Assembly: GCF_003790525.1 (NCBI RefSeq)
Contig: NZ_CP033635.1
Source of the DNA: Escherichia coli
Lineage (GTDB): Bacteria > Pseudomonadota > Gammaproteobacteria > Enterobacterales > Enterobacteriaceae
DNA length: 64,000 nt
Reading direction: 5' to 3' (one strand)
Positions 1 through 50,054 of this stretch are shown here, piece after piece; the first letter of the stretch is position 1; each line of letters begins with the position of its first letter. A program made the translations under genes and the position numbers. The notes below the pieces were generated by a model. It made no database searches and had not been told where the DNA came from. It worked only from the letters and a program-made list of their open reading frames with translations.

Positions 1-187
1 GTACCATATTTGTGGCGAGGACATCATTAAGCCCCAATTCACCGTCCTGTACTTTTTGCACCATAAACGCCATCGCTTCATTGACGGCGAGCTTCGCGCC
101 TTCTCCTCCCTGCGAAACGCTACCTGCGCCATCAGCAAGGAACATCACCAGTAATGGCTGCTGGTCATTTAGCCAGGCAACCTGCAT
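1..187 (-). CDS. yegK: PP2C-like serine/threonine phosphatase, N-terminal part only (gene continues past window start)
   Basis: Minus-strand frame open from ATG (plus 185-187) to the window edge: MQVAWLNDQQPLLVMFLADGAGSVSQGGEGAKLAVNEAMAF...; the DGAGS stretch resembles a PP2C metal-binding motif. Absent from the ORF track because no stop lies inside the window. Sits downstream of yegL as in E. coli. Confidence 0.5.
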   Translation of the reverse strand, partial: MQVAWLNDQQPLLVMFLADGAGSVSQGGEGAKLAVNEAMAFMVQKVQDGELGLNDVLATNMV

Positions 188-264
188 CTGGCAGGCATCC
201 TGACAAGGTAAATCAGCGCTAATGTGCGACGTTCCAACAGCGGATGCATAAACCAGACGCCAGC

Positions 265-924
265 TCACACTGACGTCCAGCCTTTTGGCGCTTCCAGCAC
301 AACTTCCGTTCCCGGCGTGGAGCGGGAAACCGAACGCAGTGAACTGGATAACCAGCTAAACAGTTCGCGGAATTGTAATCCCTGCAGAGACAAAGGCTGA
401 CGGACGCTGATTTGGGCCAGCGTCTTCATATCCGCCCCCTGAACACCGATGGAAAAGAAGGCAAACTTCTTATCTTCTTCCCCCTGAAACACTTTGTTGG
501 CGGCAGCCTGCCACTCATCGGTTGGAGCGCCATCGGTGATCAGGAAAATCCACGGGCGATAATACGAAATACCATTTGCACGATACTCACGTTTCCGCTC
601 CTCTACCATATCCAGGGCTTTGGTAATGGCGGCACCCATTGGTGTATCGCCCTGGGCAAACAGGATGGGCGGGAAAAAATTAGCGGCGCTGGTAAAGGGT
701 TGTTCCACATGCACCGGGCCGAACGTCACAATACCAAGTTCCACTCTTTTTAAGGCCAGCGGGTCGGCAAGCAGCTCATCGCGAAAGGTAACCAATCCGG
801 CGTTAAGTTCATTAATGGGTCTACCGTTCATCGAACCAGAAACATCCAGCAGCAAAATGCAGGGGCAACGTGGTTCCGGGTTACTGGCAAAATCGCTGGT
901 GGCAAACGTGATTTGTTCGCTCAT
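265..924 (-). CDS. yegL: von Willebrand factor A (vWA) domain protein
   Basis: 219-aa ORF; MIDAS-type motif LLLDVSGSM near the N-terminus; position before mdtA matches E. coli yegL. Confidence 0.85.
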
Positions 925-1105
925 AAGAAATCCTTTCTTAGAGAATTATTGAGGTCCGGTATCATACCGATTGCAATAATGAAATAAGAGCAAACGAAGA
1001 AACTTTCAGAATTAGGCCCGGCGGCGCAGAAAATTTTGCTATTCGCCTCGCAAGAACGGAGAGCCGTCGATTGACACTAAGGGCGGAGTGACATAATTTC
1101 AGGAG

Positions 1106-1256
1106 TGAGGGTTAGGGAGAGGTTTCCCCCTCCCCCTGGTGTTCTTAGTAAGCCTGGAAGCTAATCACTAAGAGTATCACCAGTATGATGACGTGCTTCA
1201 TCATAACCCTTTCCTTATTTAAAAGCCCTCTTCTCCGGGAGAGGGTTCCCCGTTTT
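1106..1256 (+). ncRNA. sibA: Sib-type antisense sRNA (antitoxin) fully overlapping the ibs ORF; ends approximate
   Basis: Promoter TTGACA (1071-1076) - 17 bp - TAATTT (1094-1099) on plus strand; GC-rich hairpin plus T-run at about 1225-1256; arrangement antisense to the ibs ORF as known for Sib RNAs. Confidence 0.6.
1145..1204 (-). CDS. ibsA: Ibs-family type I toxin peptide (19 aa, MMKHVIILVILLVISFQAY)
   Basis: Hand translation of the minus strand; matches the Ibs toxin family pattern (MMK + hydrophobic core + FPAY-like end) remembered from E. coli ibsA-E. Confidence 0.75.
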   Translation of the reverse strand: MMKHVIILVILLVISFQAY

Positions 1257-1441
1257 AGCGTCCCGCTGAAATCGTCGGCTTACCTCCTTTCGCCCTGAAT
1301 GCAGTCTATCGCTGACTTGCGGATAAAATAGTTTCAAGTGTGATTATTGCGTAACGACTCGCAAAGAATATTTGCTGGCAGGATCGCAGACTGCAAAGCC
1401 TGCAGATTGACAATCTTATCGTGAAGGCATACTTTCAGGAG

Positions 1442-1584
1442 TGAGGGTAGAGCGGGGTTTCCCCCGCCCTGGTAGTCTTAGTAAGCGGGGAAGCTTATGA
1501 CTAAGAGCACCACGATGATGAGTAGCTTCATCATGACCCTTTCCTTATTTAAGGCCCCTTCCTCGGGAGGGGCTTTCCCGTTTC
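1442..1584 (+). ncRNA. sibB: Sib-type antisense sRNA (antitoxin); ends approximate
   Basis: Promoter TTGACA (1407-1412) - 17 bp - TACTTT (1430-1435); hairpin plus T-run at about 1554-1584. Confidence 0.6.
1478..1534 (-). CDS. ibsB: Ibs-family type I toxin peptide (18 aa, MMKLLIIVVLLVISFPAY)
   Basis: Hand translation of the minus strand; sequence as remembered for E. coli IbsB. Confidence 0.8.
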   Translation of the reverse strand: MMKLLIIVVLLVISFPAY

Positions 1585-1769
1585 AGCGTCCCGCTGAAAT
1601 CTTCGGCTTACCTCCTTTCGCCCTGTATGCAGTCTATCGCTGACTTGCGGATAAAATAGTTTCAAGTGTGATTATTGCGTAACGCCTCGCAAAGAATATT
1701 TGCTGGCAGGATCGCAGACTGCAAAGCCTGCGGATTGACAATCTGACCGTGAAGGCATACTTTCAGGAG

Positions 1770-1903
1770 TGAGGGTTGAGCGGGGTTTCCCCCGCCCTGG
1801 TAGTCTTAGTAAGCCGGGAAGCTTATGACTAAGAGCACCACGATGATGATCCACTTCATCATGACCCTTTCCTTATTTATGGCCCCTTCCTCGGGAGGGG
1901 CTT
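1770..1903 (+). ncRNA. Sib-type antisense sRNA (antitoxin), third copy; ends approximate
   Basis: Promoter TTGACA (1735-1740) - 17 bp - TACTTT (1758-1763); hairpin plus T-run at about 1873-1903. Confidence 0.55.
1806..1862 (-). CDS. Ibs-family type I toxin peptide, third copy (18 aa, MMKWIIIVVLLVISFPAY)
   Basis: Hand translation of the minus strand inside the third repeat unit; same family signature. Confidence 0.75.
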   Translation of the reverse strand: MMKWIIIVVLLVISFPAY

Positions 1904-2069
1904 TCCCGTTTCAGCGTCCCGCTGAAATCGTCGGCTTACCTCCTTTCGCCATGCAAGCAGTCTATCGCTAACGCGTAGATAAAATAGTTTCCTGTGTTAT
2001 TACTGGATGCGTGCTCGCAAATGTGCCCGCCATTCAGACGATTCCCGATAGTGTTTCATAATTCCTCCA

Positions 2070-2087
2070 TTTTTCTCCCTTATTGGC
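2070..2087 (+). promoter_or_regulatory. BaeR box upstream of mdtA
   Basis: TTTTTCTCCCTTATTGGC matches the published BaeR consensus TTTTTCTCCATDATTGGC at 17 of 18 positions, about 55 bp upstream of the mdtA start. Confidence 0.6.
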
Positions 2088-2140
2088 TGGCTACACTAGT
2101 ATCATTCCGCGAAACGTTTCAGGAAGAGAAACTCTTAACG

Positions 2141-6510: not shown

Positions 6511-9500
6511 GTGAAGTTTTTTGCCCTCTTCATTTACCGTCCGGTGGCGACGATTTTACTGTCGGTTGCCATTACCCTGTGCGGCATACTGGGCTTCCGT
6601 ATGCTGCCGGTCGCCCCGCTGCCGCAGGTCGATTTTCCGGTGATTATGGTCAGCGCCTCGCTGCCCGGTGCGTCACCAGAAACAATGGCGTCTTCCGTTG
6701 CCACGCCGCTGGAGCGCTCACTTGGGCGCATTGCCGGAGTCAGTGAAATGACCTCCAGCAGTTCGCTCGGCAGCACGCGTATTATTTTGCAGTTTGATTT
6801 TGACCGGGATATCAACGGCGCAGCGCGTGATGTGCAGGCGGCGATCAACGCTGCACAAAGTTTGCTGCCCAGTGGGATGCCCAGCCGCCCGACCTATCGC
6901 AAAGCGAACCCGTCGGATGCGCCAATTATGATCCTCACGCTGACGTCCGATACTTATTCGCAGGGTGAACTGTACGATTTCGCCTCGACGCAGCTGGCTC
7001 CGACGATTTCGCAAATCGACGGTGTTGGTGATGTCGATGTCGGAGGCAGCTCACTGCCCGCCGTACGCGTCGGGCTGAATCCGCAGGCGCTGTTTAATCA
7101 GGGCGTGTCGCTGGACGACGTACGCACCGCCGTCAGCAATGCCAACGTGCGTAAACCGCAGGGCGCGCTGGAAGATGGCACTCACCGCTGGCAGATCCAG
7201 ACCAATGATGAGCTAAAAACCGCCGCTGAATATCAGCCGTTGATTATTCACTACAACAACGGCGGCGCGGTTCGTCTGGGCGATGTGGCGACGGTGACCG
7301 ACTCAGTGCAGGATGTGCGCAACGCCGGGATGACCAACGCCAAACCGGCTATTTTACTGATGATCCGCAAACTGCCGGAAGCCAATATTATCCAGACGGT
7401 TGACAGCATCCGGGCAAAATTACCGGAGTTGCAGGAAACCATTCCGGCGGCGATTGATCTGCAAATTGCCCAGGATCGCTCCCCCACCATTCGCGCCTCG
7501 CTGGAAGAAGTCGAGCAAACGCTGATTATCTCGGTGGCGCTGGTGATTCTGGTGGTGTTTTTATTCCTGCGCTCGGGTCGCGCCACTATTATTCCCGCCG
7601 TTTCGGTGCCGGTTTCGCTGATTGGTACGTTTGCGGCGATGTACCTGTGCGGATTCAGTCTCAATAACCTTTCGTTAATGGCGCTCACCATCGCTACTGG
7701 TTTCGTGGTGGATGACGCCATCGTGGTGCTGGAAAACATTGCACGTCATCTGGAAGCGGGAATGAAACCGTTGCAAGCCGCACTGCAAGGTACTCGCGAA
7801 GTCGGTTTTACGGTGCTGTCGATGAGTCTGTCACTGGTGGCGGTGTTCCTGCCGCTGCTGTTGATGGGCGGATTGCCGGGCCGACTGTTACGCGAATTTG
7901 CCGTGACGCTTTCTGTCGCCATTGGTATATCGTTGCTGGTTTCTCTGACATTAACGCCAATGATGTGTGGCTGGATGCTGAAAGCCAGCAAGCCGCGCGA
8001 GCAAAAGCGACTGCGTGGTTTTGGTCGCATGTTGGTAGCCCTGCAACAAGGCTACGGCAAGTCACTGAAATGGGTGCTCAATCATACCCGTCTGGTGGGC
8101 GTGGTGCTGCTTGGCACCATTGCGCTGAATATCTGGCTGTATATCTCGATCCCGAAAACCTTCTTCCCGGAGCAGGACACTGGCGTGTTGATGGGCGGGA
8201 TTCAGGCGGATCAGAGTATTTCGTTTCAGGCGATGCGCGGTAAGTTGCAGGATTTCATGAAAATTATCCGTGACGATCCGGCAGTGGATAATGTCACCGG
8301 CTTTACAGGCGGTTCGCGAGTGAACAGCGGGATGATGTTTATCACCCTCAAGCCACGCGACGAACGCAGCGAAACGGCGCAGCAAATTATCGACCGTCTG
8401 CGCGTAAAACTGGCGAAAGAACCGGGGGCGAATCTGTTCCTGATGGCGGTACAGGATATTCGCGTTGGTGGGCGTCAGTCGAACGCCAGCTACCAGTACA
8501 CGTTGTTATCCGACGACCTGGCGGCACTGCGAGAATGGGAGCCGAAAATCCGCAAAAAACTGGCGACGTTGCCGGAACTGGCGGACGTGAACTCCGATCA
8601 GCAGGATAACGGCGCGGAGATGAATCTGGTTTACGACCGCGACACCATGGCACGGCTGGGAATCGACGTACAAGCCGCCAACAGTCTGTTAAATAACGCC
8701 TTCGGTCAGCGGCAAATCTCGACCATTTACCAGCCGATGAACCAGTATAAAGTGGTGATGGAAGTGGATCCGCGCTATACCCAGGACATCAGTGCGCTGG
8801 AAAAAATGTTCGTTATCAATAACGAAGGCAAAGCGATCCCGCTGTCGTATTTCGCTAAATGGCAACCGGCGAATGCCCCACTATCGGTGAATCATCAGGG
8901 ATTATCGGCGGCCTCGACCATTTCGTTTAACCTGCCGACCGGAAAATCGCTCTCGGACGCCAGTGCGGCGATCGATCGCGCAATGACCCAGCTTGGTGTG
9001 CCTTCGACGGTGCGCGGCAGTTTTGCCGGCACGGCGCAGGTGTTCCAGGAGACGATGAACTCGCAGGTGATCCTGATTATCGCCGCCATCGCCACGGTGT
9101 ATATCGTGCTGGGTATCCTTTACGAGAGTTACGTACATCCGCTGACGATTCTCTCCACCCTGCCCTCGGCGGGCGTTGGAGCGCTGTTGGCGCTGGAGCT
9201 GTTCAATGCCCCGTTCAGCCTAATCGCCCTGATAGGGATCATGCTTTTAATCGGCATCGTGAAGAAAAACGCCATTATGATGGTCGATTTTGCGCTTGAA
9301 GCCCAACGGCACGGTAACCTGACGCCGCAGGAAGCTATTTTCCAGGCCTGTCTGCTGCGTTTTCGCCCGATTATGATGACTACCCTGGCGGCGCTGTTTG
9401 GTGCGCTGCCGCTGGTATTGTCGGGCGGCGACGGCTCGGAGCTGCGGCAACCCCTGGGGATCACCATTGTCGGCGGACTGGTAATGAGCCAGCTCCTTAC

Positions 9501-17187: not shown

Positions 17188-17841
17188 TTACGCAGCTACG
17201 GCTAACGCTGCCAGTAATTCATTCATCGATAAATATCTTGCACTCGCCGCATTAAAGCAGGTTTGTTGGGCATCTTCTGATACCACAATGGTGTTTATTC
17301 CTGCCGCCTGTGCTGCCTGAAAACCACTCACGCTGTCCTCTATAACCAAACAATCTGCAGCAGACAGTTGCAATTCTCGCAGTGCAGAAAGATAAACTGC
17401 CGGATGGGGTTTCCCATGCTTTTCGTCATCAGCACTACAAATCACCGAAAAATAATGCTGAATATTGAGTTTTGTCAGTACAGCATCGATCACCTGGTAA
17501 GATGAAGAGGTTGCCAGCGCCAGTTGATAGCCACTCCGGCGCAAAAAAAATAACACGTCCTGAACGCCTGGCATCGCTTCGCCCGTCCCGGCAATCAACG
17601 TAGTGATCAGGCGGCGAATCTCACTTTCCAACAGTGCGGGTTCAATGTGTAAATGACAATATTCACACCAGGTTTGGGCAATCTCATCCAGCCTTTTACC
17701 TTTAGTCAGTCTTATACACTCTTCGTCACTGACACATGCGCCCCACCTTGCCAGTGCTCCCTTTTGTGCCTCACGCCATAACCCTTCCGAATCAATGATG
17801 ACGCCGTCCATATCAAAAATGACTGCTTTACAATTAAACAT
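17188..17841 (-). CDS. HAD-superfamily sugar-phosphate phosphatase (217 aa)
   Basis: ORF 17188-17886 trimmed to ATG at 17841 preceded by GAGGAA; HAD motif I FDMDGVIIDS; lies immediately downstream of atlT. Confidence 0.8.
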   Translation of the reverse strand: MFNCKAVIFDMDGVIIDSEGLWREAQKGALARWGACVSDEECIRLTKGKRLDEIAQTWCEYCHLHIEPALLESEIRRLITTLIAGTGEAMPGVQDVLFFLRRSGYQLALATSSSYQVIDAVLTKLNIQHYFSVICSADDEKHGKPHPAVYLSALRELQLSAADCLVIEDSVSGFQAAQAAGINTIVVSEDAQQTCFNAASARYLSMNELLAALAVAA

Positions 17842-17885
17842 TGTTCCTCGCAATAAAGCCTGGCACCACACCAGGCTTGTCGTCA

Positions 17886-19163
17886 TCAGGAAATGGTGGC
17901 GGTCTTCCCTTCACACACTTGCTGATTTGAGAATCCCGGTTGTTCGACGCGAATAAACGGGCAAATAATAAACGCTATCACATACAGGGTGGTGTAAGCG
18001 ATAACCACACCAATAGTACTGAAATAAGGCAGAAGTACCACGGCGATTGCCGGAGCAAGGAAGTTGGACAACCCGGCTGAAAGGTTATAAACCGAAATAG
18101 CTGCTCCTTTATGTTTCGGTTCCAGTGCCGGGAAAACGGCTGCCATCGGTACGAATGCAGCAACAAAGATCCCCAGTGCCACCGCAGGTATCAGCGCCAT
18201 AGCAAAGTTATGACCGAAATGTTGCGGCATGTAGTAGAACGCCAGGCTTGAAAGCGCCATTCCCACGCAACCAAACCAGCGAACAACTTTCATCCAGCCC
18301 ATTTTCTCTGCCAGCACGCCCCAGAATACGTTAGAGAAGATGGTGGTAAAGAAGAAGACTGCCCAGACCTGCAACCACTCAGAGGTGGTAAAGCCCAGCT
18401 CATCAACAAACATCATCGGCATAATTACGGCGAATCCGAATAAAGATAAGGTGTTGATAATGCGAACAATACTGGAAAGCAAAATATTGCGGTTGGTATA
18501 AAGCAAAGTCACCGCACGGCCCAGTTCGCTAAACTTCTCTTTTGTGGTTAGGTTTTGCATATGGCGTGGTGTTTCTACTTTGCGCATAGAAATTAACGCA
18601 ACAGCGCCACCAACCCCACAGAAGGCCAGCGCCAGCCATAATGTTCCCATTTCGCCAATAAGCGGAATGGTAAAACTGGGGATGTAGCTGCCGAATACGC
18701 CGATACCAATAGAGTAAACTGCCCAGAACCAGCCCAGAGCAGCACTGGTGCTGTCACTGCGTACGTTATGGACAATCGCCACAATAAAGGCGTAGAGGAA
18801 CAGCGGATAGGCTAGGCCACGAATACCATAAAACAGCAGGATTAACCCATAGTTCGCCTGCCCCAGACCAAAGACCAGAAACAGCACGTGAAATACGCAC
18901 CACAGCACAAAGCCGATAAACATGGTTTTTTGTGGCGTAATAATTTCGGCAACTACGCCGGAAACCCAGGCGGAAAGCGCTGCCGCCAGGCCATAGAGCG
19001 TAAAGGCAAAGGAGGCTTCTGCAGGCGTGAAACCCAGTGCTTTAATGTAATGCGACAGGAATGCCAGTTCAAAACCGTCTCCGGTCATAAAGATGGCAAT
19101 GGCAATATATCCCCACACCAGATTTAAGGGTAATCCCAGCCATTGTTTATTTGTTAACGACAT
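17886..19163 (-). CDS. atlT: MFS pentitol transporter, D-arabitol operon (425 aa)
   Basis: ORF trimmed to MSLTNKQWLGL...; about 85% identical by eye to the second MFS protein at 26892-28166. Confidence 0.85.
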   Translation of the reverse strand: MSLTNKQWLGLPLNLVWGYIAIAIFMTGDGFELAFLSHYIKALGFTPAEASFAFTLYGLAAALSAWVSGVVAEIITPQKTMFIGFVLWCVFHVLFLVFGLGQANYGLILLFYGIRGLAYPLFLYAFIVAIVHNVRSDSTSAALGWFWAVYSIGIGVFGSYIPSFTIPLIGEMGTLWLALAFCGVGGAVALISMRKVETPRHMQNLTTKEKFSELGRAVTLLYTNRNILLSSIVRIINTLSLFGFAVIMPMMFVDELGFTTSEWLQVWAVFFFTTIFSNVFWGVLAEKMGWMKVVRWFGCVGMALSSLAFYYMPQHFGHNFAMALIPAVALGIFVAAFVPMAAVFPALEPKHKGAAISVYNLSAGLSNFLAPAIAVVLLPYFSTIGVVIAYTTLYVIAFIICPFIRVEQPGFSNQQVCEGKTATIS

Positions 19164-19231
19164 AGTGACCTCGTTTGTAGGATACAAAACGCCGCTCCGG
19201 TGCAAACACCGGAGGGCATTTGTGACAGATG

Positions 19232-20695
19232 TTATTGATTGCGATAGTTCAGGTCGTTGTGATACAGCGCAGTAAACTGCTGATATCGTTGCATCAGCGC
19301 ATTATGACGTTCAGGATCGCTGCGCCAGGTTTTGAAGATTTCAGGTTTTTCACACACTGCCGCCAGTGGTTTTCCCGCAGCAAGACAGGCCAGACGCGCG
19401 GCTCCCAGCGCCCCACCCGTTTCACCGCCTTTATGCGTCACCACTGGCATATCGAGAATATCGGCCAGTAACTGCGCCCAGAATGGACTTCTCGCCCCCC
19501 CACCTACCAGCGAGCATTGCTCAATTGCCGTACCGCTTTCTTGCAGGACTCGCAGCCCATCGGCAATACCAAAGCTGACGCCTTCCAGCACTGCATATCC
19601 CATTAGCGCACGCTGACTGGAGTGTGTCAGCGCCCAGAACAATCCCCGGGCATGAGGATCGTTATGTGGCGTACGTTCACCAGAAAGATACGGGAGGAAC
19701 ATCGGTGCACTGGCTTTGTCTGCATCAGAAAGTTGGGCAATCTCTTCCAGTAACTCTGTTTCCGTTACCCCCACCAGACGGCAGAACCATTGCAGACAAC
19801 TGGCGGCACTGAGCATTACACTCATCTGGTGCCATAAATTCGGTAGTACGTGACAGAAAGCATGGACTGCTGATTGCGGCGCAGGACGATAGGCATCAGT
19901 CACTACAAACAACACCCCGGAAGTTCCCAAAGAAATAAACGCATCTCCGGGAGAAACGGCCCCCACACCAATTGCGCTCACGGCGTTATCGCCACCGCCA
20001 CCAGCAACTACAACCGAAGATGTCAGCCCCCAACGGCTGGCAACTTCAGGGGAAAGAGTGGCAGAAACGTCACAACCTTCCACCAGTTCCGGCATATTCG
20101 CCCGTGTCAGGCCACATTTTTCCAGCAACGAATCTGACCAGTCGCGTTTTTCCACGTCGAGCCACAACGTGCCAGCAGAATCCGACATATCGGAAATCTT
20201 TTGGCCGGTCATTTTGAAACGCAAATAGTCTTTCGGCAGTAAAACGGTGGAAATGCGCGCAAAGTGCTGCGGCTCATGGCGCCGTACCCATAGCAATTTG
20301 GGGGCGGTAAATCCAGGCATCGCCAGGTTTCCCGCTACCTGATGCAACTCTGGTGCGATCTCTTCCAGCTCCGCACACTCCTGCGCACTGCGGGTGTCGT
20401 TCCATAAAATCGCCGGACGAATCGCCTCTCCTTTTTCATCCAACAGGACGGCACCATGCATTTGACCAGAAAGGCCAATGGCTTTGATCGCCTGCCAGTG
20501 GTGACCGCATTTTTCCCGCAGGGTCGACATTAAATATTCCGTCGCTTCCCACCAGGCTTGCGGCGATTGTTCTGACCAGTGTGGATGGGGCCGCTGAATG
20601 GTCAGCGGCGCACTATGGGTGGCAACAATTTCATTGTTTTCATCAATGACCAGCGCCTTAACTTCCGATGTGCCCAGATCGATACCCAGATACAT
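19232..20695 (-). CDS. atlK: FGGY-family kinase, xylulokinase-like (487 aa)
   Basis: N-terminus MYLGIDLGTSEVKA typical of FGGY sugar kinases; AGGAGG before the ATG. Confidence 0.85.
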   Translation of the reverse strand: MYLGIDLGTSEVKALVIDENNEIVATHSAPLTIQRPHPHWSEQSPQAWWEATEYLMSTLREKCGHHWQAIKAIGLSGQMHGAVLLDEKGEAIRPAILWNDTRSAQECAELEEIAPELHQVAGNLAMPGFTAPKLLWVRRHEPQHFARISTVLLPKDYLRFKMTGQKISDMSDSAGTLWLDVEKRDWSDSLLEKCGLTRANMPELVEGCDVSATLSPEVASRWGLTSSVVVAGGGGDNAVSAIGVGAVSPGDAFISLGTSGVLFVVTDAYRPAPQSAVHAFCHVLPNLWHQMSVMLSAASCLQWFCRLVGVTETELLEEIAQLSDADKASAPMFLPYLSGERTPHNDPHARGLFWALTHSSQRALMGYAVLEGVSFGIADGLRVLQESGTAIEQCSLVGGGARSPFWAQLLADILDMPVVTHKGGETGGALGAARLACLAAGKPLAAVCEKPEIFKTWRSDPERHNALMQRYQQFTALYHNDLNYRNQ

Positions 20696-20708
20696 AACCG
20701 CCTCCTGG

Positions 20709-22076
20709 TTAGTTAATTAACGCGTAGACGTCAGCGATTTTTTCGCGCAACAACGCGGCAAAATCTTCACGTTCGGTTAAATCGCCAAACAGCGCTTTAT
20801 CACTGGCATAAACAGCGACGGGATCGGCAGACTGGAACATTGCATGGACAGCTGGTGCATCAAGGATGCCATCCTGATATTCATAGGGCAGTTTGCCGTG
20901 ATGCCATTGCTCCATGAATACGTAAAACAGTGCAGGTAACATGGCGGTGGCATTCGGGCGAACGCCTCGCTGGTAGCACTCTCGCAGTGTGGGGGCAATC
21001 ATCGCCGGAATTTTCGAGAAACCATCCGCAGCGACGCGTTGGTTGGTGTCCTGAATATGTGGATTGGTAAAACGCTTGAGTACAACATCACGGTAGGTTG
21101 GCAAATCGATACCGTTATCGCCCAAGCAAGGAATGACATCTTCCGTCACGTAGCGGTCGGCAATCTGATAGATAAAATCGGTCATTGTGCTTTCGTGGAT
21201 ATATTTTTGACCGATTAACGTACCTGCCCAGGCGATGCAACTGTGTGAAGAGTTAAGAATGCGAATCTTCGCCTCTTCATAGGGGATTACCGACGCCACC
21301 AGTTCGACACCGACCTTCTCCAGTGCCGGACGGACATCACGGAAATTATCTTCCACGACCCACTGGATAAAGGTTTCGCCCATTACCGGCGCTTTATCGG
21401 CAATACCCGTTTGAGCCTTGATCCGTGCCGGAAGTTCTGCTGCCGGACGAGGCGTAATGCGGTCAACCATGGTATTCGGGCAAGTGGTATTTGTACTCAG
21501 CCAGTCGATGACATCCTGTTTGCCAGTTAGCTGGAGAAACTCAACCAGGCCATCATGGAAACGTTCACCATTATGGCGCACGTTATCGCAATTCAGCAGG
21601 GTTAGTGGTCCGGCGTTATTTGCCATACGTGCTTCGAGGATACGGGTAATAACACCGTAAATTGTTTTGCATCCCCCTTTAAGATCTGCCGCTAAATCAG
21701 GATTGTTAACTTCCAGTTTGTGACTGGTATTCAGGTAGTACCCGCCTTCGGTGACGGTGAAAGCAATCACTTTTGTCTTCGGATCTGCCCCTTCAGCAAT
21801 CAGCGGTTGTAAATCTGCCTGCCACGGTATCAACTTCTGAATTGAGGTGATCTCTTCATATTCGCTTACCCCTTCCGGGCTGACGGTTTCCAGCACATAG
21901 CGACCTTTCTGTGCACTGAGTGCCTGTACGACATGTTCAGCATCATTACGAATATTGCCCGCAGCAATGCTCCAGCGTTTATCGCCCATCACCTGCAAAC
22001 GGTGTAGATACCACGCCTGATGTGCGCGATGAAAAGAACCTAACCCGATGTGCAGCCATGTAAATTGTTCGTTCAT
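20709..22076 (-). CDS. atlD: Mannitol-dehydrogenase-family polyol dehydrogenase, D-arabitol 4-dehydrogenase-like (455 aa)
   Basis: ORF 20709-22121 trimmed to [21 protein letters not shown] (Rossmann N-terminus); the start could instead be 15 codons upstream. Confidence 0.8.
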
Positions 22077-22288
22077 TGTTTCGTTCTCCATTGACGTTAT
22101 GGCTGAACTGTAATCGAACATTTGAGTTAATTAAGAGCGTTAGATCACAAAAGAACAATTGACCAAAAAAATTACAAATGACCAAATCAAAGCAATAAAC
22201 TTGCCTCGCGGTAAAGCTATGGCCAAAATGACGCTAATCAGTTGCGGGATTTTCACGATTCCGCACGCCACTTTTGAGGTAGGGAAAC

Positions 22289-23230
22289 GTGAACAAAGAA
22301 GATGACATCAGGCTCGATCAAAAAGTACGGGCGGCATGGATGTACTACATTGCCGGACTTAATCAGAGTGAAATCGCAAGTCAGTTAGGTACTTCACGGC
22401 CAGTGGTTCAACGCCTGATAGCAGCAGCGAAAGACGAAGGGATTGTGTCGATTGGATTGCATCATCCGGTTGCCAACTGTCTCGATTATGCCCAACTGTT
22501 AAAGGAAAAGTACCAATTAACCGACTGCAATATTATGCCGGTTTACAGTATTGAAAGTACGCTCGACAGCGTGACATTTGGCTGTTATCAACTGATGGCG
22601 CGTTACTTACAGGGTGACAAACCGACCATCGTTGGTATTGGTTCTGGCTTAACGTTGAAGAAAACCATTAAACGTATCGATTTTGATAGTCAGAATACCC
22701 GCTGTGTGGCGCTGATTAGCGCCATGAATGAACACGGGCAATGTAACTATTACGACGACGTACCGCTGCTTTTGGCGAGAAAAATTCAGGGAAAATATTA
22801 CCAGTGGCCAGCTCCACGCTATGCTCAGTCCCGCGAAGAGTACCAAATGTGGTCAACCAATCGATTGTTCCGCAACGTCTCTACCGTAGCGCGTGACTCT
22901 GATGTTATTTTCGTGGGTATTGGTGCTTTAGGTCGTCAAAGCCCTATTTTCAAAGATGGCTTTATTGATGAGCAGCAACTGGAAGAGTTAACAGCACGCG
23001 GAGGCGTTGGTGAAATCCTCGGACGCTTTATTGATGCTGAAGGCAATGTTGTGGAAAGCCAGATCAACCAGATGATCACCAGCCATGATATCCGCGAAAG
23101 CAACTGCCCACGTATCGCAGCTGCCTGTGGTGAGGATAAACGTCCGGCGATCCTCGCAGCATTAAAAGGTGGGTGGATCAACGGTCTGGTCACCGATGAA
23201 CACACCGCACGCTGGTTGCTGACACGTTAA
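22289..23230 (+). CDS. atlR: SorC/DeoR-type sugar-binding transcriptional regulator (313 aa)
   Basis: N-terminal HTH (LNQSEIASQLGTSRPVVQRL) plus sugar-binding domain; divergent from atlDKT. Symbol assigned by adjacency only. Confidence 0.75.
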   Translation: MNKEDDIRLDQKVRAAWMYYIAGLNQSEIASQLGTSRPVVQRLIAAAKDEGIVSIGLHHPVANCLDYAQLLKEKYQLTDCNIMPVYSIESTLDSVTFGCYQLMARYLQGDKPTIVGIGSGLTLKKTIKRIDFDSQNTRCVALISAMNEHGQCNYYDDVPLLLARKIQGKYYQWPAPRYAQSREEYQMWSTNRLFRNVSTVARDSDVIFVGIGALGRQSPIFKDGFIDEQQLEELTARGGVGEILGRFIDAEGNVVESQINQMITSHDIRESNCPRIAAACGEDKRPAILAALKGGWINGLVTDEHTARWLLTR

Positions 23231-23232
23231 TC

Positions 23233-24264
23233 TCAGCTGACAACATTCAGGCTCGGAATGAGTTGTGGCGGTATCTCAATGCGACGCAGGGTGGTATCGC
23301 CAGAATCCACAATTTCAAACACTTTTTCGAGCATGGCGGGTACATCCTGACGAACCATATCGATATCGTGCCCGAGCAGAGAAACAAAAGGATCCCAGTC
23401 AAAACACCCCATTGGCGGTTGATTGGCTCCCGTCTGCCCGGTTTGCGCCAGCCAGCGAACCACCCCTTCAAGAGAGATTGTCGAGTTGACGAATAACCCG
23501 TGAAGCGATACTGCAGAGCTTTGGAAGACCTCTTTCAGTAATCCCTCTACGCGAGCAGAAGAGTAGCCGGTAACCAGTTTATGTTCATCCGGTACGGTTA
23601 TCCCCAAAGCCTGATGGGCATCGACAAAACCACATAAACGTTCAGCAGTATTGTTATCGCTTATACGTCCACCGACAAAAGTCAAAGGTGCCAGCTTGCC
23701 ATAGCGTTTCTGGCTGTTGGCTAAAATTCTTTCCGTCAATAATTTCGCCCCCATATAGTTATCAGAAATGATCGACGGCGCCAGTGTTCCCGGCAGATCC
23801 AGATTCAGTGTCGGTACGCCCGCTTGCTGGCACATTTGGGCTATTTTATCCGGTTGAGTCGCTCCGGTAGCAATGACCCAATCCACCTGCCAGGAGAGCA
23901 TGGCGCGAGCAGCCTCAATTTCCAGTTCTGGCTGTCGCCGCGTACAGGTGATGATTGGCAGTAATCCTCTGGCACGCGCCATCTCTTCAAATTTTTCGGC
24001 AATCGATCCAAAGTATCGGTTGTCATATTTCGGCACAATCATGCCAATAACGTTGGATTTTTTACTGCGCAGTAAACTTGCCTGCCGATTAATGGCATAT
24101 CCCTGCTCTTCCGCAATACGGGTGACCTTCTCAGCCAGCTTTGCGCTGATGCGTCGCTTTTTCCAGTTGCCATTCAAAATAGCGCTTACCGCACTGGCAG
24201 AAACGCCGGTTAATTCTGCCAGGTCGTAAATGGTCGTTTTCTTCGTTTTCTCAACGCGTGTCAC
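23233..24264 (-). CDS. rtlR: LacI-family transcriptional repressor (343 aa)
   Basis: LacI-type HTH (TIYDLAELTGVSASAVS) plus periplasmic-binding-like domain; divergent from rtlDKT. Symbol assigned by adjacency only. Confidence 0.75.
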   Translation of the reverse strand: MTRVEKTKKTTIYDLAELTGVSASAVSAILNGNWKKRRISAKLAEKVTRIAEEQGYAINRQASLLRSKKSNVIGMIVPKYDNRYFGSIAEKFEEMARARGLLPIITCTRRQPELEIEAARAMLSWQVDWVIATGATQPDKIAQMCQQAGVPTLNLDLPGTLAPSIISDNYMGAKLLTERILANSQKRYGKLAPLTFVGGRISDNNTAERLCGFVDAHQALGITVPDEHKLVTGYSSARVEGLLKEVFQSSAVSLHGLFVNSTISLEGVVRWLAQTGQTGANQPPMGCFDWDPFVSLLGHDIDMVRQDVPAMLEKVFEIVDSGDTTLRRIEIPPQLIPSLNVVS

Positions 24265-24422
24265 AAATTTGCCTCTTCATTTTGAATGTCTCTTGCTGAG
24301 AATTTAAGCAAGTGCTAGATCTGCTTCATCGATTGAGCAGTTTGCTTCACACGGCAGCTAAATTCCCGTTCAGTGCGTGCAAGCAAACAGAGACTATAAA
24401 TTCGCCCTGGTAAAAGGATTAT

Positions 24423-25175
24423 ATGATGAATCACTCTGTGCCCTCTATGAATACTCCCCTTAATGGCAAAGTTGCAGCTATCACTGGCGCTGCGTCAGGT
24501 ATTGGCCTGCAATGTGCAAAAACGCTGCTCGATGCAGGAGCAAAGGTAGTATTGATTGACCGGGAAGGCGACAAACTGCACAAGATTGTCGCTGAGTTAG
24601 GCGAAAACGCGTACGCGCTGCAACTCGATCTCTTCAATAATCAGCAAGTCGATAACATGCTGGCGGACATTATCGAACTGGCGGGTGGGCTGGATATTTT
24701 TCATGCCAATGCAGGCGCTTATATTGGCGGCCCAGTGGCTGAAGGTGATCCAGATGTCTGGGATCGTGTGTTAAATCTGAATATAAATGCGGCGTTTCGC
24801 TGTGTCCGTGCAGTCCTGCCGCATATGATTGCGCAGAGGTCGGGCGATATAATTTTTACCAGTTCCATCGCGGGCGTCGTTCCGGTTATCTGGGAACCGA
24901 TCTACACCGCGTCCAAATTTGCCGTTCAGGCATTCGTACACACTACCCGCCGCCAGGTTTCTCAATATGGCGTGCGTGTGGGTGCGGTGCTGCCAGGACC
25001 AGTAGTCACTGCCCTGCTTGATGACTGGCCAAAAGCCAAAATGGAAGAAGCCCTGGCAAATGGTAGCCTGATGCAACCGATTGAAGTGGCGGAATCAGTA
25101 TTGTTTATGGTGACCCGCTCGAAAAATGTCACCGTGCGAGATTTAGTGATCCTGCCTGGCAGTGTCGATCTGTAA
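24423..25175 (+). CDS. rtlD: Short-chain dehydrogenase/reductase, ribitol 2-dehydrogenase-like (about 249 aa)
   Basis: SDR motifs TGAASGIG and YTASK; the start may be the second ATG at 24426. Confidence 0.85.
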
Positions 25176-25185
25176 GGGCGCAATC

Positions 25186-26790
25186 ATGACAATAACCAAA
25201 ACCGTTATTGGTGTTGATGTGGGATCAGGCAGTGTCCGCGCCGGGATTTTTGATCTCAACGGATCTCTGCTATCCCATGCCACAGAAAAAATCACGACTA
25301 CGCGGCGCAGCGGAAGCCGCGTGGAACAGTCCAGCCAGGAGATCTGGCAGGCGGTCTGTTCATGTATTCGTAATGCGCTCACTCTGGCAGACGTTTGTGC
25401 ACAAAGTGTGGCAGGCATCGGTTTTGATGCCACCTGTTCTCTGGTGGTACTGGATAAAAACGGTGATCCATTGCCTGTCAGCCCGGAAGGAGATGCAAAG
25501 CAAAATATCATTGTGTGGATGGATCACCGCGCCACCGAACAAGCAGAGCGAATCAATGCCACTCACCATCCGGTGCTGAACTACGTCGGTGGTAAAATTT
25601 CGCCTGAAATGGAAACACCGAAAATTCTCTGGCTGAAAGAAAATATGCCAGAGATCTACGAACGTGCCGGACAATTTTTCGATCTGGCCGATTTTCTGAC
25701 CTGGCGGGCTACCGGTGATTTAGCGCGTTCAGTATGCACTGTTACCTGTAAATGGACGTGGCTGGCACATGAAAATCGCTGGGATCCAGATTATTTCCGC
25801 ACCATTGGCCTTGCAGAGTTAGCGGATGAAGATTTTATTCGCATTGGTCATCATATTGTTTCTCCCGGAACACCTTGTGGAAATGGTTTAACAGCACAAG
25901 CCGCGGCAGAGATGGGATTACTCCCCGGCACACCTGTCGCTGTAGGGTTAATTGATGCTCACGCTGGTGGCATCGGTACGGTTGGCGTAGAAGGTGGAGC
26001 GCTGAACAATCTCGCGTATGTTTTCGGCACTTCTTCATGCACCATGGCATCTACCACTTCTCCCTCGTTTGTACCGGGTGTCTGGGGGCCGTATTACAGT
26101 GCGATGGTTCCAGGTCTGTGGTTAGTTGAAGGCGGGCAAAGTGCTGCGGGAGCAGCTATTGACCAGCTACTTGATTTCCATCCGGCTGTTGAAGAAGCTC
26201 GCGAAATGGCACAACGTGTGAATCAGCCCCTCCCCGTCTGGCTTGCTGATCGAATCCTCGAAAAAACGGCGCAACCATCAGATGCTGTCGCCCTGGCGAA
26301 AGGGCTACACGTGGTGCCGGAATTTCTCGGAAATCGCGCCCCCTTCGCAGATCCTCATGCCAGAGCGGTAATTTGTGGCCTGGGTATGGAGCGAGATCTG
26401 GATAATTTACTCGCCTTGTATATCGCTGGATTATGCGGAATTGGTTATGGTCTGCGCCAAATTCTCGACGCTCAAACAGCGCAGGGAGTAGTGAGTAAAA
26501 ATATCGTTATTAGCGGCGGTGCCGGGCAGCATCCACTGGTACGACAAATTCTGGCAGATACCTGCGGTATTCCGGTCATTACCACGCAATGCTGCGAACC
26601 GGTTTTATTAGGCTCGGCCATTCTTGGTGCTGTCGCCGGAAATATTGCACCTTCTGTTGGCGAAGCGATGCAACAATTCACCCATGTGGATAAATATTAT
26701 TATCCGCAAGAACGCTATCAATCTCTTCATCATCGTCGATATGAGGCCTATAAGCAGTTGCAGCATACTGCAAAATTACTCAGAGACTAA
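25186..26790 (+). CDS. rtlK: FGGY-family kinase, D-ribulokinase-like (534 aa)
   Basis: ORF 25162-26790 trimmed to ATG at 25186 (MTITKTVIGVDVGSGSVRAG...), 10 bp after the rtlD stop. Confidence 0.85.
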   Translation: MTITKTVIGVDVGSGSVRAGIFDLNGSLLSHATEKITTTRRSGSRVEQSSQEIWQAVCSCIRNALTLADVCAQSVAGIGFDATCSLVVLDKNGDPLPVSPEGDAKQNIIVWMDHRATEQAERINATHHPVLNYVGGKISPEMETPKILWLKENMPEIYERAGQFFDLADFLTWRATGDLARSVCTVTCKWTWLAHENRWDPDYFRTIGLAELADEDFIRIGHHIVSPGTPCGNGLTAQAAAEMGLLPGTPVAVGLIDAHAGGIGTVGVEGGALNNLAYVFGTSSCTMASTTSPSFVPGVWGPYYSAMVPGLWLVEGGQSAAGAAIDQLLDFHPAVEEAREMAQRVNQPLPVWLADRILEKTAQPSDAVALAKGLHVVPEFLGNRAPFADPHARAVICGLGMERDLDNLLALYIAGLCGIGYGLRQILDAQTAQGVVSKNIVISGGAGQHPLVRQILADTCGIPVITTQCCEPVLLGSAILGAVAGNIAPSVGEAMQQFTHVDKYYYPQERYQSLHHRRYEAYKQLQHTAKLLRD

Positions 26791-26891
26791 TTAACCAGCC
26801 GCCTGACGCTGTTTTCAGGCAATCACTAATAACGACTCACTCCGGTAATATCCCGGAGTGCATTCATCTGCACCCTAAAAACGAGGTTTAT

Positions 26892-28166
26892 ATGTCCAGA
26901 AATAATAAACAGTGGTTGGGTTTGCCACTGCATCTGATATGGGGATATATCGCCATCGCAGTATTTATGACTGGTGATGGTTTCGAACTCGCATTCTTAT
27001 CGCACTATATTAAATCGTTAGGCTTCACACCTGCGGAAGCCTCTTTTGCCTTTACGCTCTACGGCCTGGCGGCTGCCCTTTCCGCCTGGGTTTCTGGGGT
27101 AGTAGCGGAAATCATCACGCCGCAAAAAACCATGCTGATTGGTTTTGTCCTATGGTGCGTATTCCATGTTCTGTTTCTGGTCTTTGGATTAGGACAGGCA
27201 AACTATGGGTTAATCCTGCTGTTTTACGGGATTCGTGGTTTAGCGTATCCGCTATTTCTCTACTCATTTATCGTCGTTATTATTCATAACGTGCGTAGCG
27301 AAAATTCCAGTTCTGCTCTGGGTTGGTACTGGGCGGTATATTCAGTAGGGATCGGTGTTGCTGGCAGTTATATTCCCAGTTTTACGATACCGATTATGGG
27401 TGAAATGGGAACCTTATGGCTGGCACTGGCGTTCTGCTTTGCTGGCGGTGTCATTGCCATGATCTCCTTGCGTCATGTTAAAACGCCTGGACATATGCAT
27501 AATTTAACTCCCCGTGAGAAGTTTGCAGAATTAAGTCGGGCAGTAACTTTACTTTATACCAACCGCAATATTTTTCTCTCCAGTATTGTGCGCATTATAA
27601 ATACCTTATCGTTATTCGGTTTTGCGGTCATTATGCCAATGATGTTTGTGGATGAACTGGGATTCACCACCTCTGAATGGTTGCAGGTCTGGGCGGCATT
27701 TTTCTTTACCACTATTTTCTCTAATATTTTTTGGGGGATTGTGGCAGAAAAAATGGGCTGGATGCGTGTTATTCGCTGGTTTGGTTGCCTCGGGATGGCA
27801 GCATCAAGTTTAGCGTTTTACTACATGCCGCAATACTTTGGTCACAACTACTGGATGGCAATGATTCCGGCGATTGCTCTGGGAACTTTTGTTGCTGCAT
27901 TTGTGCCGATGGCCGCTGTCTTCCCGGCACTGGAACCAAAACACAAAGGTGCTGCAATCTCGGTTTACAACCTCTCTGCGGGTATGTCTAACTTCCTGGC
28001 TCCGGCAATTGCCGTGGTGTTATTACCGTGGTTTAGCACTATCGGTGTGGTCATTGCCTATACAGCATTGTATCTATTGGCCTTTGTCCTTTGCGCATTC
28101 ATTCGCGTTGAGCAGCCAGGATTCAGTTCTGCGCCAGTGACTGAGAAGGCATTGAATATCTCCTGA
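26892..28166 (+). CDS. rtlT: MFS pentitol transporter, ribitol operon (424 aa)
   Basis: Paralog of atlT (MSRNNKQWLGLPLHLIWGYIAIAVF...). Confidence 0.85.
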   Translation: MSRNNKQWLGLPLHLIWGYIAIAVFMTGDGFELAFLSHYIKSLGFTPAEASFAFTLYGLAAALSAWVSGVVAEIITPQKTMLIGFVLWCVFHVLFLVFGLGQANYGLILLFYGIRGLAYPLFLYSFIVVIIHNVRSENSSSALGWYWAVYSVGIGVAGSYIPSFTIPIMGEMGTLWLALAFCFAGGVIAMISLRHVKTPGHMHNLTPREKFAELSRAVTLLYTNRNIFLSSIVRIINTLSLFGFAVIMPMMFVDELGFTTSEWLQVWAAFFFTTIFSNIFWGIVAEKMGWMRVIRWFGCLGMAASSLAFYYMPQYFGHNYWMAMIPAIALGTFVAAFVPMAAVFPALEPKHKGAAISVYNLSAGMSNFLAPAIAVVLLPWFSTIGVVIAYTALYLLAFVLCAFIRVEQPGFSSAPVTEKALNIS

Positions 28167-48715: not shown

Positions 48716-50054
48716 CATAAGCGCTAACTTAAGGGTTGTGGTATTACGCCTGATATGATTTAACGTGCCGATGAATTACTCTCACGATAACTGGTCAGCA
48801 ATTCTGGCCCATATTGGTAAGCCCGAAGAACTGGATACTTCGGCACGTAATGCCGGGGCTCTAACCCGCCGCCGCGAAATTCGTGATGCTGCAACTCTGC
48901 TACGTCTGGGGCTGGCTTACGGCCCCGGGGGGATGTCATTACGTGAAGTCACTGCATGGGCTCAGCTCCATGACGTTGCAACATTATCTGACGTGGCTCT
49001 CCTGAAGCGGCTGCGGAATGCCGCCGACTGGTTTGGCATACTTGCCGCACAAACACTTGCTGTACGCGCCGCAGTTACGGGTTGTACAAGCGGAAAGAGA
49101 TTGCGTCTTGTCGATGGAACAGCAATCAGTGCGCCCGGGGGCGGCAGCGCTGAATGGCGACTACATATGGGATATGATCCTCATACCTGTCAGTTCACTG
49201 ATTTTGAGCTAACCGACAGCAGAGACGCTGAACGGCTGGACCGATTTGCGCAAACGGCAGACGAGATACGCATTGCTGACCGGGGATTCGGTTCGCGTCC
49301 CGAATGTATCCGCTCACTTGCTTTTGGAGAAGCTGATTATATCGTCCGGGTTCACTGGCGAGGATTGCGCTGGTTAACTGCAGAAGGAATGCGCTTTGAC
49401 ATGATGGGTTTTCTGCGCGGGCTGGATTGCGGTAAGAACGGTGAAACCACTGTAATGATAGGCAATTCAGGTAATAAAAAAGCCGGAGCTCCCTTTCCGG
49501 CACGTCTCATTGCCGTATCACTTCCTCCCGAAAAAGCATTAATCAGTAAAACCCGACTGCTCAGCGAGAATCGTCGAAAAGGACGAGTAGTTCAGGCGGA
49601 AACGCTGGAAGCAGCGGGCCATGTGCTATTGCTAACATCATTACCGGAAGATGAATATTCAGCAGAGCAAGTGGCTGATTGTTACCGTCTGCGATGGCAA
49701 ATTGAACTGGCTTTTAAGCGGCTCAAAAGTTTGCTGCACCTGGATGCTTTGCGTGCAAAGGAACCTGAACTCGCGAAAGCGTGGATATTTGCTAATCTAC
49801 TCGCCGCATTTTTAATTGACGACATAATCCAGCCATCGCTGGATTTCCCCCCCAGAAGTGCCGGATCCGAAAAGAAGAACTAACTCGTTGTGGAGAATAA
49901 CAAAAATGGTCATCTGGAGCTTACAGGTGGCCATTCGTGGGACAGTATCCCTGACAGCCTACAAAACGCAATTGAAGAACGCGAGGCATCGTCTTAACGA
50001 GGCACCGAGGCGTCGCATTCTTCAGATGGTTCAACCCTTAAGTTAGCGCTTATG
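48716..50054 (+). mobile_element. IS186 (IS4 family), about 1339 bp, with perfect 23-bp terminal inverted repeats and 10-bp target-site duplication
   Basis: Left end CATAAGCGCTAACTTAAGGGTTG (48716-48738), right end CAACCCTTAAGTTAGCGCTTATG (50032-50054); direct repeats AGTAGTCTCC at 48706-48715 and 50055-50064. Confidence 0.9.
48771..49883 (+). CDS. IS186 transposase (DDE, IS4 family; about 370 aa)
   Basis: MNYSHDNWSAILAHIGKPEELDTSARNAGALTRRREIRDAATLLRLGLAYGPGG..., the IS186 transposase as remembered; the ORF track starts two codons earlier at GTG 48765. Confidence 0.85.
   Translation: MNYSHDNWSAILAHIGKPEELDTSARNAGALTRRREIRDAATLLRLGLAYGPGGMSLREVTAWAQLHDVATLSDVALLKRLRNAADWFGILAAQTLAVRAAVTGCTSGKRLRLVDGTAISAPGGGSAEWRLHMGYDPHTCQFTDFELTDSRDAERLDRFAQTADEIRIADRGFGSRPECIRSLAFGEADYIVRVHWRGLRWLTAEGMRFDMMGFLRGLDCGKNGETTVMIGNSGNKKAGAPFPARLIAVSLPPEKALISKTRLLSENRRKGRVVQAETLEAAGHVLLLTSLPEDEYSAEQVADCYRLRWQIELAFKRLKSLLHLDALRAKEPELAKAWIFANLLAAFLIDDIIQPSLDFPPRSAGSEKKN

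Follow-up and report, generated by a model that had tools for sequence, protein, structure and literature searches.

The window, a stretch of 64,000 nucleotides of the Escherichia coli contig NZ_CP033635.1, begins with genes read on the minus strand. The ORF reading of positions 1-924 gave two minus-strand coding regions, the complete gene yegL (924..265, ATG at 924-922, stop codon TGA at 267-265), which encodes a 219-aa vWA protein of the TerY family, and the 5′ part of pphC, also named yegK (268..1, codons 1-89 of 253), which runs off the left edge of the window. A putative Shine-Dalgarno-like sequence AAGGA, read from the sequence (931..935, minus strand), is located 6 nt upstream of the yegL ATG. 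The genes meet in a GTGA junction (265..268, minus strand), where the GTG start codon of pphC (268-266) overlaps the TGA stop codon of yegL (267-265). The promoter and terminator scan of positions 1-2200 was uninformative, with one promoter-like site against 2.0 expected and two terminator-like sites against 2.6 expected.

As was found by the megablast search of 5426 complete E. coli genomes, window positions 1-2100 are present in 5419 of them, and at least 15 genomes match this segment at 100% identity. The RefSeq annotation of the matches listed names the two genes as yegL (vWA domain-containing protein) and pphC (protein-serine/threonine phosphatase PphC). These matches, far above the level of chance, show the window to be chromosomal DNA of E. 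coli. Both are well-known, annotated E. coli genes, and the pair as such is already known. The region beyond the left edge was read from one annotated RefSeq genome (L001), where the window coordinate equals the L001 coordinate minus 9000. This genome is 100% identical to the window over positions 1-2100 and shows three mismatches across the 11.1 kb compared. Positions 1-924 very probably comprise the first two genes of the locus yegL-pphC(yegK)-[yegJ]-yegI, a switch for Ser/Thr phosphorylation that has three components and is of the type of the TerY-P triad.

The YegL sequence scored above the cut-offs of the Pfam families VWA (39.9 bits, cut-off 23.8) and VWA_2 (31.4 bits, cut-off 27) and possesses the complete set of MIDAS residues, D27-x-S29-x-S31, T94 and D131. 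The motif D27-V-S29-G-S31 was located in the translation and is encoded at 832..846, and the codons of T94 and D131 lie at 645-643 and 534-532, all on the minus strand. In the alignment of 33 diverse family members no sequence deviates at D27, S29 or S31, and at least 90% of the sequences have T94 and D131; the N-terminal motif NPEPRCP and the C-terminal motif F-x-E-L-F-x-W-L-S-x-S are conserved as well. The AlphaFold2 model built with this family alignment has a mean pLDDT of 92.5 and matched 193 PDB chains at E<=1e-3, all of them vWA/integrin I-type domains, including those of vWF A3, ANTXR, the integrin I-domains and the MIDAS of Rea1. As modelled, the product of yegL is a canonical Rossmann-like alpha/beta vWA fold with an intact MIDAS site. 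The PDB sequence searches with YegL and with PphC returned no match at E<=0.01.

The family of YegL is large and comprises 5188 representatives at 50% identity (E<=1e-3). In the first homology search only E. coli sequences were among the matches listed, and the distant representatives of the family lie on metagenome contigs too short for reading of the neighbourhood. Elsewhere, YegL-type vWA domains are fused to TIR, caspase, CHAT/TRADD-N, AAA+ and GTPase domains, and one protein (P0160) is a natural Pkinase-vWA fusion. The set of conflict-system domains that includes such fusion partners of vWA has been discussed by Kaur et al. 2020.

PphC is recognisable as a PP2C-like phosphatase from its N-terminus. 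The 89-residue fragment encoded in the window, which is identical to the N-terminus of RefSeq PphC, matched Pfam PP2C_2 with 57.1 bits (cut-off 24, E 2.3e-15), and the full-length protein of 253 aa, read from L001, matched the same family with 171.1 bits over profile positions 1-204 of 209 (E 3e-50). Two catalytic aspartates lie within the window, namely D24 in motif I (Q23-D24; D24 codon 199-197) and D46 in motif II (D46-G-A-G-S; D46 codon 133-131), both on the minus strand. All of the 40 family members aligned possess D46, D131, D186, D242 and D243, and at least 90% of them possess D24. Biochemical studies of PphC have described a metal-dependent PP2C-like phosphatase that was assayed with MnCl2, loses its activity upon addition of EDTA, is inactive as the D46N mutant and dephosphorylates autophosphorylated YegI (bioRxiv 10.1101/303594).

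The sequence-only reading of this DNA had seen in positions 1-924 a vWA gene followed on the same strand by the N-terminus of a PP2C-like phosphatase, likened the pair to eukaryote-like signalling modules and supposed that only part of the module lies in the window. The domain searches, the MIDAS residues and the RefSeq names bear out both gene assignments and their common strand; yegI, the kinase gene of the module, lies beyond the left edge on the L001 map, and in the published work it is grouped with yegL and pphC in a single locus. The extension upstream and the domain search of the whole yegK product, which that reading had proposed, gave a complete PP2C domain, and so the concern that the ORF might not extend into such a domain falls away. 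The reading erred in the extent of the phosphatase ORF, which it had placed at 1-187. Downstream of the in-frame stop codon at 358-356 there are two in-frame start codons only, GTG 268 and ATG 187, and RefSeq starts pphC at GTG 268-266. The ATG at 187-185, which corresponds to M28, was considered as the start and rejected, as it would delete the conserved motif I; residues 1-27 are themselves conserved in the 40 family members, with W3 invariant and G12, H15, Q23 and D24 present in at least 90%. Of 78 related loci, 59 have an overlap of 4 nt between the stop codon of the vWA gene and the start codon of the PP2C gene, and seven more have an overlap of 1 nt. The GTGA overlap and its conservation in relatives, the RefSeq start and the presence of just two candidate codons thus place the start of pphC at GTG 268. 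Judged by its sequence, the GTGA overlap is a signature of translational coupling, conserved in most relatives.

Leftward from yegL, the L001 map shows pphC (253 aa, minus strand), yegJ (153 aa, plus strand), yegI (648 aa, minus strand), yegD and alkA. The yegI gene is annotated there as 'protein kinase YegI', yegD encodes an Hsp70-like protein, and the domain search assigned YegJ to the DUF2314 proteins. No ter genes adjoin the locus on this map. As yegJ lies on the opposite strand between pphC and yegI, the latter is not co-transcribed with yegL-pphC in L001, whereas in an E. coli locus devoid of yegJ (L004) the three genes are contiguous on one strand. Two such arrangements have been described, one of B strains, where yegI overlaps pphC by 4 nt, and one of K strains, where yegJ lies in between (Rajagopalan, Nagle & Dworkin 2018 J Bacteriol; Rajagopalan & Dworkin 2020 FEBS Lett); in these two papers yegL, pphC and yegI are treated as one locus and yegL is drawn in the 'yeg operon'. 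From the identity of L001 to the window, we infer that the window strain has the yegJ-containing 'K-type' arrangement. The yegJ segment was found in 1933 of the 5426 complete E. coli genomes, which indicates a spread much wider than laboratory K-12.

The kinase itself has been characterised as an active, autophosphorylating Hanks-type Ser/Thr kinase of the inner membrane, which has two TM helices and exposes its N-terminus and its C-terminus to the cytoplasm (Rajagopalan & Dworkin 2020, bioRxiv 10.1101/819920). YegI has no match to a Pfam kinase family and matches the kinase models of NCBIfam and PADLOC weakly; Pfam Pkinase is matched by 17 of the 19 members of the YegI family. The protein is conserved along its whole length in the family, and the Cys/His pattern C309-x5-H315-x8-C324-P-W-C327, a predicted zinc-ribbon-like motif, is invariant in 40 kinases. 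Searched alone, the Cys/His segment matched no zinc-ribbon family of Pfam, and the TerY-C model was not matched either.

Around residues 520-570 YegI contains two glycine hairpins (G-V-G-P ... G-I-E-T-A-A-D-V ... G-F-G). Such hairpins are typical of tandem helix-hairpin-helix (HhH) modules. The Pfam HHH_5 profile scored 20.1 bits with YegI, below its cut-off of 27, and matched three of the 19 family members. The AlphaFold2 model of residues 445-648 (pLDDT 95.1) is all-alpha; its helices are long and antiparallel, and a compact module lies midway along the chain. A local Foldseek match of this model to Rad51 was found with a probability of 0.82-0.90, and the global fold searches returned generic coiled coils only. 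As far as the model goes, the tail of YegI appears to be a coiled coil of about 200 aa with a tandem HhH module, the assignment of the latter being weak. A genome-wide screen in E. coli placed YegL and YegI, each when overproduced, among the strong DNA-damage-up proteins, and the predicted HhH tail fits with this result.

A pattern scan of one genome per species yielded 80 loci encoding proteins 59-97% identical to YegL. These loci span Proteobacteria, Firmicutes, Planctomycetes, Chloroflexi, Cyanobacteria, Acidobacteria, Myxococcota and the archaeon Methanoregula. When their six-frame ORFs were searched with PphC and YegI, a PphC-like ORF was found in 79 loci and a YegI-like ORF in 73, always downstream of the vWA gene and on the same strand. 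In the 67 loci with at least 2.9 kb of DNA downstream of the vWA gene, the full order vWA > PP2C > kinase on one strand was present in 64; the three exceptions are two Thiotrichales loci without the kinase and one locus where the vWA gene is split by an insertion. The survey shows the pairing of yegL and pphC to be part of a tightly conserved, self-contained cassette of three genes. Identity of about 60% between the E. coli and the archaeal copies implies horizontal transfer.

The search of the same loci for a fourth conserved gene was negative: a homologue of YegJ is encoded in none of the 80, and YegD only at the E. coli locus. The 150 flanking genes collected from 27 diverse loci are heterogeneous and include no recurrent partner. 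Genes related to defence are few among them (two DpdF, two methyltransferases and some mad genes). Given the heterogeneous flanks and the small number of defence genes, no defence-island context is claimed here.

In its composition the cassette resembles the TerY-P triad, where a TerY-like vWA protein and a PP2C phosphatase are combined with a Ser/Thr kinase that carries a zinc ribbon as a fusion (Anantharaman, Iyer & Aravind 2012, as cited in PMC11090510 and PMC4978471). Such triads are described as associated with ter genes and with CoCoNuT systems. In about 2300 plasmids YegL had matches of 29-37% identity, and each of the ter plasmids listed contained three matching places. Aligned with the TerY of a ter plasmid, it is 32% identical over 181 aa (BLASTP E 9e-28; hhalign probability 99.6%), and the alignment includes the C-terminal motif F-x-W-x-S-x-S. 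On plasmid pPMK1-NDM the order of genes is vWA+TerY-C, then PP2C (577 aa), then a 429-aa kinase. The PphC family profile matched this PP2C protein with an hhalign probability of 98.7% (E 1.5e-16) and the YegI family profile matched the kinase with a probability of 98.8% (E 5.9e-17) over 331 columns, the latter alignment extending through the Cys motif, which in the plasmid kinase reads C...C-P-Y-C. As all three components are homologous to their ter-plasmid counterparts, it seems that the E. coli locus works like the TerY-P triad to which it is homologous.

The yegL locus and the ter-plasmid triad share the order of genes and the three types of components, but the sequence identity between them is just 20-32%, and the yegL locus has no adjacent ter genes. 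PphC is a minimal phosphatase of 253 aa, whereas the 577-aa plasmid protein carries a long N-terminal extension. In comparison with the plasmid kinase, YegI adds two TM helices and, after the zinc-ribbon-like motif, the predicted coiled-coil/HhH tail of about 200 aa. The first knuckle of this motif is C-x5-H in YegI and C-x4-C in the plasmid kinase, and the end C-P-[WY]-C is common to both.

A further relative is the OB-fold kinase variant of TerY-P, whose anti-phage function was validated by Gao et al. 2020 (Science, cited second-hand); TerY-P-like modules are likewise described as stand-alone anti-phage systems. The validated system has the same architecture as the yegL locus, a stand-alone cassette of vWA, PP2C and Ser/Thr kinase, but its kinase is an OB-fold fusion, whereas the YegI tail, as modelled, combines TM helices with the coiled-coil/HhH part and has no OB fold. 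The TerY model of PADLOC matched YegL with an E-value of 0.0095, PphC had no match, and YegI matched generic kinase models only. Across the family, the TerY model was matched by three of 19 vWA members (E 5e-3) and STK_OB by three of 19 kinases (best E 2.6e-4). At the level of sequence profiles, the TerY-P defence models of PADLOC do not match the YegL, PphC and YegI families at meaningful E-values. The literature search found no anti-phage experiment on the YegL-PphC-YegI family. The comparison adds modestly to what was known; new here are the homology of each of the three components to TerY-P, the conserved coupling, the features of the kinase tail, the spread into archaea and the miss by the defence HMMs.

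A working scheme of the switch can be drawn from these features. Coupled translation would yield YegL and PphC together and in a fixed proportion. The metal site of the YegL MIDAS might hold an acidic or phosphorylated peptide of YegI, of PphC or of their substrate, so that YegL would act as an adaptor or sensor for the pair of kinase and phosphatase. PphC would keep YegI reset, or off, until a signal arrives. YegI, anchored in the membrane, could engage nucleic acid or a partner by means of the zinc-ribbon-like motif and the HhH tail. The conserved cytoplasmic tail of YegI, with its predicted coiled-coil stalk and tandem HhH module, suggests that the signal or the target involves nucleic acid near the membrane.

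Several roles can be considered for this switch. It is possible, and we put it forward tentatively, that the locus serves endogenous stress signalling as a metal-sensing or DNA-damage-linked switch with housekeeping targets at the membrane. As cited in later papers, the proposal of Anantharaman et al. 2012 for TerY-P is a phospho-switch that senses metal and is linked to DNA processing, and the metal site of the YegL MIDAS is intact. The rise of DNA damage upon overproduction of YegL or YegI points in the same direction, although a phenotype caused by overexpression need not be specific. In E. coli the locus is core, and mutations of yegI recur in lines of long-term evolution (Rajagopalan et al., bioRxiv 10.1101/303594). 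On the other hand, ter genes do not adjoin the locus and no inducing condition has been reported for it: Rajagopalan et al. found no conditions for its robust expression (bioRxiv 10.1101/303594, 10.1101/819920), and a 2026 study of RNase E interactions detected no expression under standard growth. Our literature search for later work on YegI or PphC found none that assigns a physiological role. The silence of the locus under laboratory conditions might also be taken to mean that in the yegJ-bearing lineage the genes are an uncoupled remnant, where the insertion of yegJ set yegI apart from yegL-pphC and the genes are retained but have no function at present. The position of yegJ in L001, the frequency of its segment among the E. 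coli genomes and the lack of a YegJ homologue in all 80 related loci agree with such a scenario. It is nevertheless quite improbable, since both ORFs of the window are intact and contain all catalytic and MIDAS residues, the K-type PphC has been discussed as an active enzyme with altered activity (bioRxiv 10.1101/303594), and the genes are kept in nearly all E. coli genomes.

Anti-phage defence, with a stand-alone immune cassette whose membrane kinase would sense infection and whose phosphorylation would lead to growth arrest or to a block of the phage, is a doubtful reading of the locus. It is favoured by the homology of all three proteins to the TerY-P triad and by the stand-alone anti-phage systems described for TerY-P-like modules. 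The fusions of YegL-type vWA domains to conflict-system domains, the variable flanks of the related loci and the patchy distribution, which at about 60% identity reaches across phyla into archaea and implies horizontal transfer, can be explained in the same way. Against it, the PADLOC models of TerY-P barely match the three proteins, and the YegI tail is predicted to differ from the OB fold of the validated systems. Furthermore, presence in 5419 of 5426 E. coli genomes is unlike the variable occurrence of typical defence islands, the 150 flanking genes include just a few defence genes, and no effector gene is conserved beside the triad. A defence role is thus allowed by the fusions and the context and is not established, and the near-universality and the failure of the HMMs call for caution. 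It also seems unlikely that YegL-PphC-YegI represents, in a bolder version, a distinct and horizontally mobile branch of TerY-P that is missed by the defence HMMs and has a membrane-anchored kinase whose coiled-coil stalk bears a tandem HhH module at its tip. Such a triad would detect DNA that is foreign or damaged at the inner membrane and would serve as a switch for immunity or abortive infection, near-universal in E. coli and shared with archaea.

The three-component phosphorylation switch of the TerY-P type is the reading of the locus that we retain. The locus is a reminder that a Ser/Thr switch of eukaryote-like kind, conserved and joined by a vWA protein, is present in the model organism E. 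coli. The homology to TerY-P, the conserved coupling, the zinc-ribbon-like motif, the TM helices and the putative HhH tail lead to testable hypotheses on the working of the switch.

The sequence-only reading had also mentioned that the window holds a second vWA/MIDAS gene, and this is the case: a yehP-type vWA gene with the motif VDQSGSM is located at about 60026-61162 on the plus strand. It belongs to the MoxR-vWA pairs (yehL/yehP in the window), which were compared with yegL together with the ternary conflict systems of Kaur et al. 2020; that paper mentions the combination of kinase, PP2C and stand-alone vWA protein only as an accessory to actinobacterial GAP1-N2 GTPase systems. The MoxR-vWA pairs and YegL would have in common the vWA/MIDAS protein as a peptide-binding adaptor. 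In contrast to these pairs, no AAA+ MoxR gene adjoins yegL, and its conserved partners are the PP2C phosphatase and the kinase. The 25 Pfam families with the most matches in the 150 flanking genes of related loci include no AAA+ family. The immediate neighbours of yegL on the L001 map are pphC and the Ibs/Sib repeats. Upstream of yegL, this strain possesses three Ibs/Sib copies; K-12 presumably has two.

The cassette at the left end of the window, in which the vWA gene yegL and the PP2C phosphatase gene pphC are accompanied by the Ser/Thr kinase gene yegI, is probably not contiguous in this strain. In L001, a near-identical RefSeq genome, a yegJ-containing segment at positions 7782-8506, just left of the window, separates pphC from yegI. 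The literature confines the yegJ-bearing arrangement to K-12 laboratory strains, but a search of 5426 complete E. coli genomes found the segment in 1933, and these are not limited to such strains. The yegJ gene is itself interrupted by IS1 in some E. coli genomes.

Broken or incomplete triads were also found elsewhere. The IncHI2 plasmid pEGY49_MCR-1.1 carries a broken TerY-P triad (L084 10061-13717), the long PP2C protein of which is reduced to its N-terminal 223 aa (E-value of 2e-12 when compared with the N-terminal end of the intact homologue, which has 577 aa). The truncated PP2C gene is directly followed by mcr-1.1 and ISApl1, and the triad appears to be the insertion site of the colistin-resistance cassette. 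Two loci from Thiotrichales MAGs (L026 3891-6187 and L027 6899-8437) encode YegL-like and PphC-like proteins without the kinase; in L026, its position is occupied by a 241-aa ORF sharing a 4-nt overlap with the PP2C stop. In another locus of the YegL family (L020 6836-14603), an insertion of about 6.6 kb divides the vWA gene.

The YegL-type vWA domain was also found in fusion proteins (P0126, P0134, P0139, P0153, P0160, P0190 and P0191). The fusion to TIR, tandem AAA+, caspase, CHAT+TRADD-N, protein kinase and GTPase domains suggests wide reuse of this clade of vWA domains among conflict-type systems. In addition, YegL-like proteins (34-45% identity, E-values from 6e-11 to 6e-39) are encoded by three unannotated human-gut "Bacteriophage sp." contigs, MT836238.1, MT839721.1 and MT835511.1; these may be copies of the cassette, either phage-borne or misbinned.

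The sequence-only reading had called yegL a second vWA gene in the window; the other one it alluded to was identified as yehP (about 60026-61162, plus strand), with the MIDAS motif VDQSGSM. It belongs to the yehL-yehM-yehP-yehQ cluster, encoding an ATPase, a DUF5682 protein, the vWA protein and a SWIM zinc finger protein, and its neighbours begin at about 56.6 kb. According to the annotation of the matching RefSeq genome, yehL is frameshifted, and both upstream DUF4132 genes contain internal stops. An IS186-type element of the IS4 family (1338 bp, window 48717-50054), flanked by an 11-bp duplicated overlap, interrupts the first DUF4132 gene of the pair that lies upstream of yehK; genome comparison showed that it is missing from NZ_CP029741.1, which is elsewhere colinear.

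Between yegL and mdtA lie three tandem Sib antitoxin RNAs (window 1071-1219, 1407-1549 and 1735-1877; Rfam RF00113, 138-150 bits), repeated with a unit length of about 328 nt and each annotated in the matching RefSeq genome with a short Ibs toxin ORF opposite. K-12 has two copies, sibA and sibB, at this site, and the strain studied here appears to possess one more. The interval between yegS and fbaB, which is occupied by the galactitol (gat) operon in K-12, is annotated in the matching genome with a pentitol-type gene set (window about 17188-28166, coordinates mapped from L002). The set comprises dalD (arabinitol dehydrogenase), xylB (xylulokinase), two RbtT/DalT transporters, an SDR oxidoreductase, an FGGY pentulose kinase and regulators.
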